DNA from: Escherichia coli
GTDB taxonomy: Bacteria > Pseudomonadota > Gammaproteobacteria > Enterobacterales > Enterobacteriaceae
Length of the DNA: 33,649 bases
Strand: one strand, 5' to 3'
Assembly: GCF_003334255.1 (NCBI RefSeq)
Contig: NZ_QOWU01000057.1
Of the stretch, positions 6,980 through 30,266 are shown piece by piece (position 1 is the stretch's first letter; each line of letters starts with the position of its first letter). The notes under the pieces are model-generated. The model made no database searches and was not told the origin of the DNA. It saw only the letters and a list, made by a program, of their open reading frames with translations. Both the position numbers and the translations under genes were made by a program.

Positions 6980-7939
6980 TTATGCCATCGACGCGTAAAG
7001 GTTTTTAATGGTTTCCCGTAACCAGACGATCTTCGGATTATGGCTGTTCCGTTTATGCCACAGCAGGGTAAAAGGAACTTCCAGCTTTTTTTGCTGGCTT
7101 TCGTCAAACGGGAGAGGAAGAGCAACCAACGGCAGTTGATGGAGTTGATTGTAGTACTGACAGTAGCGCGGCGCGGTCGCCAGTAGCAGATTGTCGGGTT
7201 GCGCTGCCATAAACAGTGACTGCTCAAATTCCGGCAGGCTCATAGCAATCGTGCGTTCGCGCCCCAGCTCCTGTAACACATTGTCCAGCGCCCAGGTGTC
7301 GCTCTGTTCCCAGCAAATGCTGATATGCGGATAACGTAAAAAGGTGTCCAGATTCCACGTTTCATGCAGTGCCGGATGATCTTTGCGTAACCAGACGCAG
7401 GGTACATCACTAAACAGCACTTCATAATCAATGGCTAACGGTAGCGAGCTTAACAGCTCCCGCGAGCGAGGATGGCTTTCGCGACCGGAAAAACCAATAT
7501 CCACTTCACCACGAGTAATGGCATCTAAGGAATCGTAATCCCAGTTACGTAGTTTGATGGTCGCCTGCGGGTAACGTTGGTAGATCCGTTTCGACAGCGC
7601 ATTAAGCATGATCATCATCAGCGGCGATTCCGCCGCCAACTCAAACTTCAGGCCGCGCGGTGTCTGGTGGTGCGGTTTATCCAGCAGCAGATTGCTCATT
7701 TGCATCCATTCCGCCAGATTTTGCTCCATGCTGACCATTAGCGGTGTGGGCGACAGCCCCAGCGGTGAGTTCACAAAGAGCGGGTCGTCAAACCACGCTC
7801 TTAACTTTGCCAGCGACTTACTCACCGCTGAAGGGGTCACGTTCATCCGCTTCGCCGCTTTGGTCACGCTGCGCTCCTGCATCAGCAGTTGCAGACAGAG
7901 CAGCAGATTGAGATCAAGCGTGGTGATGGATTTCTTCAT
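6980..7939 (-). CDS. yidZ: YidZ, LysR-family transcriptional regulator (319 aa)
   Basis: ORF trimmed to ATG at 7939 ([43 protein letters not shown]… = LysR-type HTH); overlaps mdtL 3' end by 26 nt. Confidence 0.85.
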
Positions 7940-13981: not shown

Positions 13982-15628
13982 TCAGGATTTTTTCTTCTCG
14001 CGGCTATGCAGGCCACGTTTTTCCAGACCACGGTAAATCAGCTGCTGCTGAATAATGGTTACCAGGTTGCTGACGATATAGTACAGCACCAGACCTGACG
14101 GGAACCACAGGAAGAACACGGTGAAGATGACCGGCATAAAGGTCATGATCTTCTGCTGCATCGGGTCGGTCACTGTGGTCGGCGACATCTTCTGAATGAA
14201 GAACATCGTTACGCCCATCAGGATCGGCAGGATGTAGTACGGGTCCTGTGCCGACAGGTCGTGGATCCACAGTGCAAACGGTGCCTGACGCAGTTCAACG
14301 GAACCCATCAGCATGTAGTACAACGCCAGGAAGATTGGCATCTGGATCAGCAGCGGGAAGCAGCCGCCCAGCGGGTTAACCTTCTCAGCTTTGTACAGCG
14401 CCATCATTTCCTGGCTGATACGCTGTTTGTCATCGCCCAGACGCTCACGCATTGCCTGAATCTTCGGCTGCAACATACGCATCTTCGCCATGGAGGTGTA
14501 CTGCGCTTTGGTCAGCGGGTACATGATGCCACGAACGATAAAGGTGATGATGATAATGGAGAAGCCCCAGTTACCCACAAAGCTATGGATCCATTTCAGC
14601 AGTTTGAACAGCGGCTGAGAGATGAACCACAACCAACCGTAATCAACGGTCAGATCCAGGTGCGGAGCAACAGCTGCCATTTTGTCCTGGATTTCCGGGC
14701 CAACCCACAGGGTGCTGTTCATCGCGCCAGTCTGACCAGGCTGAACCAGTACCGGCTGAGATTTATAGCCGATAGCGGCGATGCCGTTACCCAGATTAGC
14801 GGTATAGAAGTTGTTGGTACCGTCGTTATGCGGGATCCACGCCGTCGCGAAATACTGTTGCAGCATCGCCACCCAACCACCTTTCGAAGAGATGTTCAGG
14901 TTTTCGTTATCGGCAATGGTATCGAACTTGTATTTCTCATACTTCTCGTCAGGCGTGGAGTACGCCGCGCCACGGAAGGTGTGCAGTGCGAAGTTGCTGC
15001 TTCCGGTATCGAGATGCGGTGGCAGAGTGATGGATTGCTTCAACTGACCAAACGAGGAGATTTCCAGCGGTTTCTCGCCAGCGTTCTGCACGTTGTAGTT
15101 GACGTTGACAGCGTAATCACCACGTTTCAGGACAAACGTTTTGGTAAACGTGTTGCCTGCCGCGTCGGTATACGTCATCGGCACCTGCAGTTCGTTTTGA
15201 CCTTCAGCCAGCACATAAGCGTCTTTTTCAACGTTATACAGCGGACGCGGGCCGTTAGCCGGGTTATCCGGGCCATCACGACCGGTCAGACCGCTCTGTG
15301 CCTGATAAATAAACTGCGGTGAAGTTTCCAACAGCTGGAACGGCTGGGTAGAGTTCAGCTCTTTCGGGTAAGCAGGCAGCAGAGCTTGCTCAACATCACC
15401 ACCACGGGTGTTGATGGTCAGATCAAGCACGTCGGTCTTAACCGAGATCAGTTTCCCCTGGCCACTGGCCGGTACGCCCTGGTCGGCGGCGCTACCCGCT
15501 GCGGTGGTCGTTGTCTGCGTGGTCTGTTGGGCCTGAGGTTGCGGGTTTTTATCCTGCTCCCAGGCTTGCCAGATCATGAAAGACACGAACAGCAAAGCGA
15601 TGACTAAAAGATTGCGTTGCGAATCCAT
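13982..15628 (-). CDS. yidC: YidC, membrane protein insertase (Oxa1/Alb3 family) (548 aa)
   Basis: 548-aa ORF, ATG at 15628; N-terminal TM, large periplasmic domain, C-terminal multi-TM core ending in basic tail. Confidence 0.96.
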
Positions 15629-24609: not shown

Positions 24610-25266
24610 TTATTGGTTTACTGCATATACAACCAGAAATTGCAGCGGTGCAGTAATGATGTCCAGCGTAACAGTCACTGGCAGTAATGCTGCGGAAACA
24701 CCATCCGGAATGCCTCTGGGTGAATAGTATTCATAAAATCGCACTTTAAATGGATGGTAGAACGCCATCACCTTTGAGTAATCCATGTTTTTATTTTTCT
24801 CATGGATTGTGCCTTTTAGGTTTTCCAGTGACCTGGTACAGTGTTGAACACCACAGGCAAAACCATAATGCGTTGCCAGTGCCTTTTCTTCTTCGTTATT
24901 CCAGTAGTAGTAAAGCGATATTGTGCCGGTAAATTTCTTTTTCCCCGCATTTAAAACAAATCTTGCGTCATCGGCAACCTGAATATTGTGCCGGTTAAGT
25001 GCTGGATCATTGAGCATCTTAACGATGTCATCGGCACCATCAGTGATAAGGTAATCCAGCGATTCCCCTACAAAAACATAGCCTTTTGTTCCATTACTAT
25101 CTTTTGCCTGCGATAGCCCAGTGATGGTGTCTGACTGCGATTGATACTTTCCTGAACTACCCTTTGCGGTATGGGAAACCAGAGCATACGAGATACAGCC
25201 TGAAAGCATCAGCGCCAGTGGGAATAAACCGGCAGCCTTAAAAAATCCCTTAAAATTCAACTTCAT
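24610..25266 (-). CDS. yidX: YidX, predicted lipoprotein (218 aa)
   Basis: ORF 24610..25383 trimmed to ATG at 25266 ([24 protein letters not shown]… = signal peptide with lipobox LSGC). Confidence 0.8.
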
Positions 25267-25403
25267 GATTAATCCTTTAAACGAGTAGCTAAGCCGTTGA
25301 AAGCATACTCTTCTTTCCCTCCTGTTTAGCGCCTGATATCCCTTTTCAGATTTCTGCCCGACGCATGTCATTTTTTTATGCATTGTTCTTTTTGTGATCT
25401 AAA

Positions 25404-25434
25404 TTGTAGTACAACAATATAAGTTTGTACTACA
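25404..25434. promoter_or_regulatory. Candidate DgoR operator: inverted GntR/FadR-type repeats TTGTAGTACAA and TTGTACTACA in the dgo promoter (third half-site GTACTACA at 25470..25477)
   Basis: Two copies of a T-GTA-N-TAC-A motif in inverted orientation 11 bp apart, about 110-140 bp upstream of the dgoR start, plus a third copy 40 bp downstream; GntR-family operators typically have this form. Confidence 0.6.
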
Positions 25435-25543
25435 TTACACGCACGGCAAACGCGAACGTCATCACGCTGGTACTACAAAGTTGCCGCGTTATGCATCGAT
25501 CGGGGTAAAGTAGAGAAGAACATACAGAGCACAAGGACTCTCC

Positions 25544-26233
25544 ATGACTCTCAATAAAACCGATCGCATTGTCATTACGCTGGGTAAACAGATCGTTCAC
25601 GGCAAATACGTGCCAGGCTCGCCGCTTCCGGCTGAGGCGGAACTCTGTGAGGAGTTTGCAACCTCGCGCAACATCATCCGTGAGGTGTTCCGTTCGCTGA
25701 TGGCGAAGCGGCTGATTGAAATGAAACGTTATCGCGGGGCGTTTGTGGCACCGCGTAACCAGTGGAATTACCTCGACACTGACGTACTGCAATGGGTGCT
25801 GGAAAATGACTACGACCCACGGCTTATCAGTGCCATGAGCGAAGTGCGAAATCTGGTGGAACCGGCGATTGCCCGTTGGGCAGCAGAGCGCGCGACTTCC
25901 AGCGATCTGGCGCAGATTGAATCGGCGCTGAACGAGATGATTGCCAACAATCAGGACCGCGAAGCGTTTAACGAAGCGGATATTCGCTACCACGAGGCGG
26001 TGCTGCAGTCGGTGCATAACCCGGTGTTACAGCAACTTAGCATTGCGATCAGTTCGCTGCAGCGGGCGGTTTTTGAACGAACCTGGATGGGCGATGAGGC
26101 CAACATGCCGCAAACGCTCCAGGAACATAAGGCGCTGTTCGATGCGATACGACATCAGGACGGCGATGCGGCAGAGCAGGCGGCGCTTACCATGATCGCC
26201 AGCTCGACACGAAGGTTAAAGGAAATCACATGA
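25544..26233 (+). CDS. dgoR: DgoR, GntR/FadR-family repressor of the D-galactonate operon (229 aa)
   Basis: N-terminal GntR-type HTH, FadR-like C-terminal domain; first gene of the dgoRKADT cluster. Confidence 0.93.
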   Translation: MTLNKTDRIVITLGKQIVHGKYVPGSPLPAEAELCEEFATSRNIIREVFRSLMAKRLIEMKRYRGAFVAPRNQWNYLDTDVLQWVLENDYDPRLISAMSEVRNLVEPAIARWAAERATSSDLAQIESALNEMIANNQDREAFNEADIRYHEAVLQSVHNPVLQQLSIAISSLQRAVFERTWMGDEANMPQTLQEHKALFDAIRHQDGDAAEQAALTMIASSTRRLKEIT

Positions 26234-27108
26234 CAGCTCGCTACATCGCAATTGACTGGGGATCGACCAATCTGCGCGCCTGGCTTTATCAGGGCGACCA
26301 CTGCCTGGAGAGCAGGCAATCAGAAGCAGGCGTCACGCGCCTGAACGGAAAATCTCCGGCTGCGGTGTTAGCAGAAGTCACGACCGACTGGCGTGAAGAG
26401 AAAACGCCAGTGGTAATGGCAGGAATGGTTGGCAGCAACGTCGGCTGGAAAGTTGCACCGTATTTATCTGTTCCTGCCTGTTTTTCGTCTATTGGCGAAC
26501 AATTAACGTCAGTTGGCGACAATATCTGGATTATTCCCGGATTATGTGTCTCTCATGACGATAACCACAATGTGATGCGCGGCGAAGAAACACAATTGAT
26601 CGGCGCGCGAGCTCTGGCTCCTTCCTCTCTTTATGTCATGCCCGGAACCCATTGCAAATGGGTGCAGGCCGATAGCCAGCAAATCAACGATTTTCGCACC
26701 GTGATGACCGGTGAATTACATCATTTACTGTTAAATCACTCATTGATTGGCGCAGGTTTGCCGCCGCAGGAAAACTCTGCCGATGCCTTCACAGCTGGCC
26801 TTGAGCGTGGTCTTAATACGCCTGCCATATTGCCGCAGCTTTTTGAAGTTCGCGCCTCGCATGTGCTGGGAACACTTCCCCGCGAACAGGTCAGCGAATT
26901 TCTCTCTGGTTTGTTGATTGGCGCAGAGGTCGCCAGTATGCGCGACTATGTGGCCCATCAACACGCCATCACCCTTGTCGCCGGAACATCGCTGACCGCG
27001 CGCTACCAGCAAGCCTTTCAGGCGATGGGTTGCGACGTGACGGCGGTGGCGGGCGACACGGCATTTCAGGCTGGTATAAGGAGCATCGCTCATGCAGTGG
27101 CAAACTAA
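26230..27108 (+). CDS. dgoK: DgoK, 2-dehydro-3-deoxygalactonokinase (292 aa)
   Basis: Start overlaps dgoR stop (ATGA); 292 aa; operon context. Confidence 0.93.
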   Translation: MTARYIAIDWGSTNLRAWLYQGDHCLESRQSEAGVTRLNGKSPAAVLAEVTTDWREEKTPVVMAGMVGSNVGWKVAPYLSVPACFSSIGEQLTSVGDNIWIIPGLCVSHDDNHNVMRGEETQLIGARALAPSSLYVMPGTHCKWVQADSQQINDFRTVMTGELHHLLLNHSLIGAGLPPQENSADAFTAGLERGLNTPAILPQLFEVRASHVLGTLPREQVSEFLSGLLIGAEVASMRDYVAHQHAITLVAGTSLTARYQQAFQAMGCDVTAVAGDTAFQAGIRSIAHAVAN

Positions 27109-27709
27109 ACTCCCGCTGATCGCCATTTTGCGCGGTATTACGCCCGACGAGGCGCTGGCGCATGTTGGCGCGGTGATTGACGCCGGGTTCGACGCGGTTG
27201 AAATCCCGCTGAATTCCCCACAATGGGAGCAAAGCATTCCCGCCATCGTTGATGCGTACGGCGACAAGGCGTTGATTGGCGCAGGTACGGTACTGAAACC
27301 TGAACAGGTCGATGCGCTCGCCAGGATGGGCTGTCAGCTCATCGTTACGCCCAATATCCATAGTGAAGTGATCCGCCGTGCGGTGGGCTACGGCATGACC
27401 GTCTGCCCCGGCTGCGCGACGGCGACCGAAGCCTTTACCGCGCTCGAAGCGGGCGCGCAGGCGCTGAAAATATTTCCGTCATCGGCTTTTGGTCCGCAAT
27501 ACATCAAAGCGTTAAAAGCGGTATTGCCATCGGACATCGCAGTCTTTGCCGTTGGCGGCGTGACGCCAGAAAACCTGGCGCAGTGGATAGACGCAGGTTG
27601 TGCAGGGGCGGGCTTAGGCAGCGATCTCTATCGCGCCGGGCAATCCGTAGAGCGCACCGCGCAGCAGGCAGCAGCATTTGTTAAGGCGTATCGAGAGGCA
27701 GTGCAATGA
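27092..27709 (+). CDS. dgoA: DgoA, 2-dehydro-3-deoxy-6-phosphogalactonate aldolase (205 aa)
   Basis: Overlaps dgoK 3' end by 17 nt; KDPG/KDPGal aldolase-like TIM-barrel sequence. Confidence 0.93.
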
Positions 27710-28854
27710 AAATCACCAAAATTACCACGTATCGTTTACCTCCCCGCTGGATGTTCCTGAAAATTGAAACCGATGAAGGCGTGGTCGGTTGGGGCGAGCC
27801 CGTGATCGAAGGCCGCGCCCGTACGGTGGAAGCGGCAGTTCACGAGCTGGGTGACTATTTGATTGGTCAGGATCCATCGCGCATCAATGACTTATGGCAA
27901 GTGATGTATCGCGCCGGATTCTATCGCGGCGGTCCGATCCTGATGAGCGCCATCGCCGGGATTGACCAGGCGTTATGGGATATCAAAGGTAAAGTGCTGA
28001 ATGCGCCGGTCTGGCAACTGATGGGCGGCCTGGTTCGCGACAAAATTAAAGCCTACAGTTGGGTTGGCGGCGATCGTCCGGCGGATGTTATCGACGGCAT
28101 TAAAACGCTACGCGAAATCGGCTTCGATACCTTCAAACTGAACGGTTGTGAAGAACTGGGGCTAATTGATAACTCCCGCGCGGTAGATGCGGCGGTTAAC
28201 ACCGTGGCACAAATTCGTGAAGCTTTTGGCAATCAGATTGAGTTTGGTCTTGATTTCCACGGTCGCGTCAGCGCGCCGATGGCGAAAGTGCTGATTAAAG
28301 AACTGGAGCCGTATCGCCCGCTGTTTATTGAGGAGCCGGTGCTGGCGGAACAAGCCGAATACTACCCGAAACTGGCGGCACAAACGCATATTCCACTGGC
28401 GGCGGGTGAACGCATGTTCTCACGCTTCGATTTTAAACGCGTGCTGGAGGCAGGTGGTATTTCGATTCTGCAACCGGATCTCTCCCACGCGGGCGGTATT
28501 ACCGAATGCTACAAAATCGCCGGAATGGCAGAAGCCTATGACGTGACCCTTGCGCCGCACTGTCCGCTCGGACCGATTGCACTGGCGGCTTGCCTGCATA
28601 TCGACTTTGTTTCCTATAACGCCGTACTTCAGGAACAAAGTATGGGAATTCATTACAACAAAGGCGCGGAGTTACTCGACTTTGTGAAAAACAAAGAAGA
28701 CTTCAGCATGGTCGGCGGCTTCTTTAAACCGTTAACGAAACCGGGCTTAGGCGTGGAAATCGACGAAGCTAAAGTGATTGAGTTCAGTAAAAATGCCCCG
28801 GACTGGCGTAATCCGCTCTGGCGTCATGAAGATAACAGCGTAGCAGAGTGGTAA
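27706..28854 (+). CDS. dgoD: DgoD, D-galactonate dehydratase (enolase superfamily) (382 aa)
   Basis: Start overlaps dgoA stop (ATGA); 382 aa; enolase-superfamily sequence. Confidence 0.95.
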
Positions 28855-28973
28855 TTCCTGCCACGTAAGCCCCTCATCGGGCACTAAAACAGCAATACAA
28901 AAATATAACCCTCTGTAAATTACAGGGCATGGTGAGCGGCTTCGCTATGCCCAAAATCTGGAGAAAGCTCGCT

Positions 28974-30266
28974 ATGGATATTCCCGTTAATGCAGCAAAG
29001 CCGGGGCGTCGGCGTTATCTGACGCTGGTGATGATCTTTATTACGGTAGTCATTTGTTATGTCGACCGCGCCAACCTGGCCGTGGCTTCCGCCCATATTC
29101 AGGAAGAGTTCGGCATTACCAAAGCGGAAATGGGCTATGTATTTTCGGCCTTCGCCTGGCTTTATACGCTATGTCAGATCCCCGGCGGTTGGTTTTTAGA
29201 TCGCGTAGGTTCTCGCGTGACTTATTTTATTGCGATATTTGGCTGGTCAGTGGCGACTTTATTCCAGGGCTTTGCCACGGGCTTAATGTCATTAATTGGT
29301 CTGCGCGCGATAACCGGTATTTTCGAAGCGCCTGCTTTCCCGACCAATAACCGGATGGTGACCAGCTGGTTCCCGGAACATGAACGCGCTTCTGCCGTTG
29401 GTTTTTATACGTCTGGTCAGTTTGTCGGTCTGGCGTTTCTGACGCCGCTGCTGATCTGGATTCAGGAGATGTTGAGCTGGCACTGGGTGTTCATTGTCAC
29501 TGGTGGTATCGGCATTATCTGGTCGCTGATTTGGTTTAAGGTTTATCAGCCGCCGCGCCTGACCAAAGGTATCAGCAAAGCTGAACTGGATTACATTCGT
29601 GATGGCGGCGGTCTGGTGGATGGTGATGCGCCGGTGAAGAAAGAGGCGCGTCAGCCGTTAACAGCCAAAGACTGGAAACTGGTGTTCCATCGTAAACTGA
29701 TCGGCGTTTATCTTGGGCAATTTGCGGTGGCTTCTACACTGTGGTTTTTCTTAACCTGGTTCCCGAACTATTTAACCCAGGAAAAAGGAATCACGGCGCT
29801 GAAAGCAGGCTTTATGACCACGGTGCCATTCCTCGCGGCGTTTGTCGGCGTCCTGCTCTCTGGCTGGGTAGCGGATCTGCTGGTACGTAAGGGCTTTTCA
29901 CTGGGCTTTGCGCGTAAAACGCCGATTATCTGCGGCTTGCTGATCTCCACCTGCATTATGGGCGCTAACTACACTAACGATCCGATGATGATTATGTGCC
30001 TGATGGCGCTGGCATTCTTCGGTAACGGTTTTGCTTCGATTACCTGGTCGCTGGTTTCTTCTCTGGCACCGATGCGCCTGATTGGTTTAACCGGCGGCGT
30101 GTTTAACTTCGCCGGTGGTCTGGGCGGCATCACCGTTCCGCTGGTGGTGGGGTACCTGGCGCAGGGTTACGGTTTCGCACCTGCACTGGTTTATATCTCC
30201 GCCGTCGCGTTGATTGGCGCGCTCTCTTATATCCTGCTGGTGGGCGATGTGAAGCGCGTTGGCTAA
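28974..30266 (+). CDS. dgoT: DgoT, D-galactonate:H+ symporter, MFS (430 aa)
   Basis: ORF 28929..30266 trimmed to ATG at 28974 ([22 protein letters not shown]…), GGAGA Shine-Dalgarno upstream; polytopic MFS transporter. Confidence 0.9.

Follow-up and report, generated by a model that had tools for sequence, protein, structure and literature searches.

A conserved third palindrome beside the known DgoR operators and CRP site in the control region of the Escherichia coli dgoRKADT operon: a candidate auxiliary operator

The dgo control region

The window analysed here, by which we mean the whole stretch of 33,649 nucleotides from Escherichia coli (contig NZ_QOWU01000057.1), carries the dgoRKADT operon together with its control region. 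The first gene of the operon, dgoR, is a 100% match on the DNA level to the RefSeq entry 'D-galactonate utilization transcriptional regulator DgoR' (WP_000174305.1), and it is followed by open reading frames of the sizes expected for dgoK, dgoA, dgoD and dgoT. On its upstream side, dgoR is preceded by yidX, which lies on the opposite strand, and the three repeats at issue fall into the yidX-dgoR intergenic region. They are found 66-140 bp upstream of the dgoR start codon, that is, in the promoter of the cognate regulator's own operon. The control region is 100% identical to that of E. coli K-12 MG1655, where it is found on the reverse strand of the database record. Its features, with distances counted from the ATG of dgoR, are as follows.

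25393..25408: cAMP-CRP site TGTGATCTAAATTGTA, centred at 25400.5; left half perfect, right half 2/5, in total 7/10 matches to TGTGA-N6-TCACA
25404..25414: IR1, TTGTAGTACAA, at -140..-130; perfect 11-bp palindrome and primary DgoR operator, the same as the published IR1 (PMC11705089)
25408-25413, plus strand: weak -35-like hexamer AGTACA of the inducible promoter P1, inside IR1
25425..25435: IR2, TTGTACTACAT, at -119..-109; palindrome with one mismatch and second DgoR operator, overlapping the -10 hexamer of P1
25431..25436, plus strand: -10 hexamer TACATT of P1, at -113..-108, within IR2; published as a non-optimal wild-type -10 (PMC6003448)
25468..25478: IR3, TGGTACTACAA, at -76..-66, centred at 25473; candidate weak or auxiliary DgoR operator
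25481..25511, plus strand: putative promoter P2, with a -35-like TTGCCG (25481-25486), a 19-bp spacer and a -10-like TAAAGT (25506-25511)
25544..26233, plus strand: open reading frame of dgoR, encoding a GntR/FadR-family repressor; ATG at 25544
26230-30266: open reading frames of dgoK, dgoA, dgoD and dgoT, downstream of dgoR

The surroundings of this region vary among strains. In EDL933 (E. coli O157:H7), cbrA directly follows yidX, and the whole dgoRKADT operon is deleted together with its operator. When a 501-bp query spanning the promoter was compared with 5,426 complete E. coli genomes, matches were confined to its yidX portion in about 400 of them. In E. coli HB101, an IS2 insertion precedes the dgo control region by a few hundred bp and the operator is intact; we considered this insertion as a disruption of the operator and rejected the idea, because it sits within yidX.

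Data and methods

For the comparative analyses, dgoR loci were retrieved from 80 distinct Enterobacterales species, and 79 upstream regions, including that of the window, were analysed. They cover the genera Escherichia, Salmonella, Citrobacter, Klebsiella, Enterobacter, Buttiauxella, Cedecea, Pantoea, Mixta and Tatumella, among others. IR1 and IR2 of the 78 other species, with the window excluded, served to derive a weight matrix for DgoR, on which the positions of the window were scored. Promoters were sought in 25200-25650 with a standard scan, which admits spacers of 16-18 bp only and hexamer pairs with at least 9/12 matches, and the region was also searched with a relaxed scan. Published positions relative to the ATG were converted to window coordinates.

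Two established DgoR operators

The first-pass annotation of this DNA had described three GTA(G/C)TAC half-sites upstream of dgoR. On checking the sequence, we found all coordinates to be exact (TTGTAGTACAA at 25404-25414, TTGTACTACA at 25425-25434 and GTACTACA at 25470-25477, next to TGTGATCTAAATTGTA at 25393-25408), but none of the three is a half-site. As GTA(G/C)TAC is itself palindromic, each repeat constitutes a whole inverted repeat, in which the 5-bp half-sites TTGTA and TACAA flank a central G or C, and is fit for one repressor dimer. The form of these repeats had been assigned to the GntR/FadR type, and this assignment fits the consensus of the FadR subfamily, TKGT/ACMA with three nucleotides between GT and AC, in a study that names DgoR among the regulators (Suvorova et al. 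2015, PMC4494728). Read as FadR boxes, IR1 is TTGT-AGT-ACAA, IR2 is TTGT-ACT-ACAT with one mismatch, and IR3 is TGGT-ACT-ACAA, which matches TKGTASTACMA with no mismatch.

For IR1 and IR2, the role of these repeats has been established experimentally. The IR1 sequence printed by the Chaba laboratory, 5'-CTAAATTGTAGTACAACAATAT-3' (PMC11705089), corresponds exactly to positions 25399-25420 of the window, and the same publication describes IR1 as perfect and IR2 as carrying one mismatch. These inverted repeats, located close to each other and overlapping the dgo promoter, are bound by DgoR dimers, which are released by D-galactonate (PMC11705089; PMC12288454; PMC7674646); the published model has two operators and D-galactonate as the effector, and electrophoretic mobility shift assays (EMSA) gave dissociation constants of ~0.5 uM (PMC11705089; PMC12288454). 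Independently, Belliveau et al. (2018 PNAS, PMC6003448) used Sort-Seq to locate a repressor region at -140..-110, which converts to 25404-25434 and hence begins with the first base of IR1 and stops one base short of the end of IR2. In the same study, DgoR was the most enriched transcription factor in DNA affinity chromatography coupled to mass spectrometry, and the repressive signal, visible as a positive expression shift, was gone in a dgoR deletion strain as well as in galactonate (PMC6003448).

The annotation had placed a DgoR operator over the dgo promoter and had recommended comparison with published operator mapping. In this comparison, the repressor region coincides with IR1-IR2, and a location of DgoR elsewhere is excluded by the published data. 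The operator assignment thus stands for IR1 and IR2. The third repeat, a candidate site, lies off the inducible promoter, downstream of its inferred start and adjoining the second promoter. The autoregulated, galactonate-inducible expression that had been expected for dgoRKADT agrees with published experiments on the identical sequence.

Short palindromes of this kind can arise by chance, and one might suspect a functionless cluster of an A/T-rich motif. In favour of this, four GTASTAC matches are found elsewhere in the window, at 7151, 14234, 14315 and 18129, all within coding sequence, and a site in the yidC open reading frame (13982-15628, minus strand), ATGTAGTACAA at 14313-14323, scores 18.1 bits with the DgoR matrix, which equals the score of IR2. 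However, the window contains seven GTASTAC where 1.27 are expected, a number reached by just one of 100 shuffles, and three of the seven are clustered within 71 bp of the yidX-dgoR region. When one mismatch to TKGTASTACMA is allowed, four matches are found against 1.03 expected, three of them in the dgoR promoter. Together with the matrix scores and the conservation described below, where three sites persist over 79 species amid spacers that are near saturated with substitutions, these counts disfavour chance; for IR1 and IR2, it is refuted by the published binding and mutational data (PMC11705089; PMC6003448). As an account of the cluster as a whole, we regard it as scarcely credible.

The yidC matches deserve a comment of their own. 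Those at 14234 and 14315, and a further one-mismatch copy, TATAGTACA at 14077, fall on Tyr-Tyr codons of the minus-strand reading frame, and the two weaker matrix matches among them (14233-14241 and 14077-14085) lie less than 250 bp from 14313-14323. We rejected them as unrelated to the dgo system; they are probably a codon-driven coincidence, although ChIP of DgoR could yield an off-target peak at 14313-14323.

Across the 79 Enterobacterales promoters, the 11-mer of IR1 is identical in 73 species, and mean column entropies amount to 0.06 bits in IR1 and 0.24 bits in IR2, as compared to 1.37 bits in the spacer between them. The distance between their centres is 21 bp, or two helical turns, in every one of the 79 promoters.

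CRP site and promoters

Upstream of and partially overlapping with IR1 lies the cAMP-CRP site, which had been annotated as a 'weak CRP-like half-site'. It is indeed a CRP element, but more than a weak half-site: Sort-Seq demonstrated a functional class II CRP site here, with TGTGA at -160..-140 from the ATG, and its cAMP-CRP dependence was established in a cyaA cpdA strain with 500 uM cAMP, for which a CRP-RNA polymerase interaction energy of -7.3 kBT was inferred (PMC6003448). In window coordinates, this region converts to 25384-25404, and the TGTGA half occupies 25393-25397. While three windows within 25364-25543 match TGTGA-N6-TCACA at 7/10, a perfect TGTGA half is present solely in 25393-25408. 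The right half of the site is at the same time the left half of IR1, such that five base pairs (TTGTA) are common to both, and the CRP half-site with the adjoining T-run (25389-25399) has a mean entropy of 0.19 bits across the 79 species.

The -10 hexamer of P1 is joined with the weak -35-like hexamer to AGTACA-N17-TACATT by the relaxed scan. From this arrangement, transcription would start at about 25442-25443, ~7 nt past the -10; no mapped start was found in the literature. Reckoned from the start so placed, the centre of the CRP site would be at -41.5 to -42.5, the class II position.

The CRP half-site includes a GATC (TGTGATC) at 25396-25399, whose adenine is at -147 from the ATG; a second GATC is present at 25498-25501. 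In Salmonella, a hemimethylated GATC at -147 of dgoR, in a putative CRP site, has been described, with bistable and Dam-dependent expression (PMC7708049). The adenine in the window thus has the same -147 position, and TGTGATC is conserved across genera. Another of the CRP-like matches, CGCGAACGTCATCACG (25451-25466, 7/10), was not adopted, as only its TCACG half (25462-25466) is moderately conserved, with a top-base frequency of 0.70. Its centre, 25458.5, would be ~-60 from the putative P2 start, predicted at about 25518, which may mean nothing.

For the second promoter, Sort-Seq revealed an RNA polymerase site in glucose at -70..-30 from the ATG (PMC6003448), which converts to 25474-25514 and coincides with P2. 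TTGCCG-N19-TAAAGT is the best hexamer pair that the relaxed scan returned in this region, with 8/12 matches, and its 19-bp spacer is unusually long. The -10-like hexamer is part of GGTAAAGTA (25503-25511), which, with a mean entropy of 0.30 bits over 79 species, is as conserved as the operators. The standard scan of 25200-25650 found no promoter, which is explained by its limits of 16-18 bp spacers and 9/12 matches; the relaxed scan recovered the published RNA polymerase sites.

A third palindrome between P1 and dgoR

The published model of DgoR, up to 2025, comprises two operators (PMC11705089; PMC12288454). IR3 is mentioned in none of the papers that we read; searches by sequence and by name gave nothing relevant, and a literature search for ChIP-exo, SELEX or footprint data on DgoR gave nothing usable.

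In the species comparison, IR3 is present in 77 of the 79 promoters, within two mismatches of the palindrome consensus, and missing in two. Its distance from IR2 is 43 bp in 69 species, 42 bp in six and 44 bp in two. With a mean entropy of 0.38 bits, it forms a low-entropy island between flanking spacers of 1.65 bits (25437-25461) and 1.12 bits (25487-25502). Three of its columns vary, namely position 8 and the two that the FadR-family motif leaves free, which are position 2 (a K in the motif) and the central S. Within E. coli, five divergent alleles (96-99% identical in this region) have all their substitutions outside of the three palindromes and of TGTGATC.

Despite this conservation, a perfect IR3 palindrome was found in no species examined. 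In Escherichia, Salmonella, most Citrobacter and several Klebsiella, the right half is perfect and the left half reads T[G/A]GTA, while in most other genera TTGTA is perfect and the right half reads T[G/T]CAA. In most species, the right half thereby deviates from TACAA at a base that never varies in IR1 and IR2, which speaks for a low affinity. That IR3 is always imperfect suggests that an intermediate affinity may be selected for.

The resemblance to the established operators extends to their weights and their geometry. On the matrix derived from other species, IR1, IR2 and IR3 score 20.2, 18.1 and 14.9 bits and rank first, second (tied) and fourth among 33,639 positions of the window. Only one position outside of the dgoR promoter reaches 14.9 bits, so that ~0.003 such sites would be expected by chance in the 108 bp from IR2 to the ATG. 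The centres of the three palindromes, at 25409, 25430 and 25473, are 21, 43 and 64 bp apart, corresponding to ~2, 4 and 6 helical turns; these spacings are conserved and place all three centres on one face of the helix. Relative to the start inferred for P1, IR3 is located at ~+31, and 2 bp separate the end of its core from the -35-like hexamer of P2 downstream. On balance, we favour the view that IR3 is a weaker, auxiliary DgoR operator.

Several published observations count against such a role. No repressor signal at -76..-66 was reported from Sort-Seq, which resolves single bases (PMC6003448), nor from Reg-Seq, whose authors see reason to believe that dgoR has no undiscovered sites. Furthermore, P2 is visibly active in glucose, with DgoR bound (PMC6003448), and IR3 can therefore not be a strong repressor site for P2. 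DgoR is also described as a dimer (PMC11705089), which argues against a bridging of distant sites. The published EMSA probes are 55 nt in length and do not include IR3 (PMC12288454).

In the main rival explanation, the operators are IR1 and IR2 only, and IR3 is conserved as a part of P2 or as the site of another protein, resembling a DgoR site by descent or by chance. As a part of P2, the block could serve as an upstream contact of the alpha subunit or as a contact of sigma region 4. This would agree not only with the missing repressor signal in Sort-Seq and Reg-Seq, but also with the position of IR3, which ends 2 bp before TTGCCG and whose right half is overlapped by the RNA polymerase region at -70..-30. 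Moreover, the adjoining TTG and GGTAAAGTA are conserved too, indicating that the whole P2 region is under constraint. The details of the conservation fit this explanation less well. The letters retained are those of the DgoR palindrome (T.GTA.T.CAA) rather than those of an A/T-rich UP element, and two of the three varying columns are free positions of the FadR motif. Likewise, the block keeps its distance of 42-44 bp to IR2 in all 77 species that have it, in each of them with at most two mismatches to the consensus, and it scores 14.9 bits on a matrix made from the IR1 and IR2 sites of other species alone. We therefore consider a role restricted to P2 or to another protein the less likely reading, if worth keeping in mind.

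Since a P1 start near 25442 would put 25468-25478 at ~+27 to +37 of a leader of ~100 nt, the block could also act as RNA, if the P1 transcript had a folded 5' leader with an influence on translation or stability of the dgoR mRNA. An RNAalifold analysis of 24 diverse leaders, however, yielded zero consensus pairs and an energy of 0, and the E. coli leader, at -21.3 kcal/mol, is no more stable than its shuffled versions (-22.5 kcal/mol; z = 0.37), 127 of 200 of which fold at least as well. We rejected a leader structure, which shows neither consensus pairs nor excess stability, and deem an action as RNA highly improbable.

Discussion

With a probability of about 85%, this is the dgoRKADT control region as known from E. 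coli K-12, in which the published arrangement of IR1, IR2 and CRP site is complemented by the weaker palindrome IR3. The main finding as such adds nothing new: the reading of IR1, IR2 and the CRP site is correct, but has been known since 2018-2019. What is new is the third palindrome, conserved, phased, always imperfect and omitted from the published model.

The layout suggests how these elements would work together. As published, DgoR dimers repress from IR1 and IR2, and with dgoR as the first gene of the operon, this repression extends to dgoR itself. The dimer on IR1 would cover a part of the CRP core and the weak -35 of P1, and the dimer on IR2 would cover its -10. Given that IR1 and IR2 overlap the CRP site and both hexamers, a bound repressor would exclude activator and polymerase alike, a simultaneous occlusion that we infer from the geometry. 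Binding of D-galactonate frees the DNA of DgoR, again as published, whereupon CRP can recruit RNA polymerase. A dimer on IR3 may tighten repression in one or more ways, by crowding the -35 and upstream part of P2, by blocking polymerases that have escaped from P1, or by stabilizing the complex on IR1 and IR2. From these arrangements, a low-affinity auxiliary operator appears to be the most economical reading of IR3. The more specific proposal, that IR3 is a third DgoR operator missed by the two-site model, held in fixed phase and always imperfect, which determines how much DgoR and DgoT is made from P2 at the basal level or blocks read-through from P1, seems to us evenly balanced between true and false.

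Strong primary operators at a promoter that are accompanied by weaker, phased secondary sites, as proposed here for dgo, are familiar from the lac (O2, O3) and gal (OE, OI) systems, where the loss of a single secondary operator has small effects. These systems employ repressors of other families and depend on tetramerization or on looping assisted by HU, across distances of 90 bp or more, which is not known for DgoR. Another parallel is reportedly provided by LldR, a member of the same subfamily, at lldPRD, where Aguilera et al. (2008) are said to have placed two operators up- and downstream of the transcription start and to have proposed DNA looping. As in dgo with its IR3, an operator would thus lie downstream of the start; more than one site is reportedly required for repression. 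The spacing in dgo is far shorter, however, at 43-64 bp, DgoR is reported to be a dimer, and IR3 is a candidate only. As for dgo itself, the primary operator mapping is reportedly that of Singh et al. (2019, J Bacteriol), and Arya et al. (2021), from the same laboratory as the 2025 papers, are likewise said to have published on its cis-acting element.

Compared with the operators of the FadR subfamily in general, such as those of FadR, PdhR, LldR, GlcC and ExuR (PMC4494728), all three dgo sites share the form T-K-G-T-N3-A-C-M-A, but their core is specifically GTA-S-TAC, and they form a phased triplet instead of a single palindrome. The published K-12 element (Belliveau et al. 2018 PNAS; PMC11705089) is the same DNA, with IR1, IR2, TGTGA and TACATT at identical positions; the published model has two operators and, in the papers that we read, leaves out the palindrome at -76..-66.

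That the layout of operators and activator site could be rediscovered from the raw sequence makes this region a useful positive control for sequence scans. Beyond that, massively parallel reporter assays use dgoR as a 'gold standard' promoter, it is a model for GntR/FadR allostery, and dgoR variants matter in gut colonization. If IR3 is indeed a weak third operator, quantitative models of this promoter would have to be revised with regard to the basal level of the repressor, the induction threshold and bistability, and IR3 would help to set the threshold of dgo induction and how much it differs from cell to cell.
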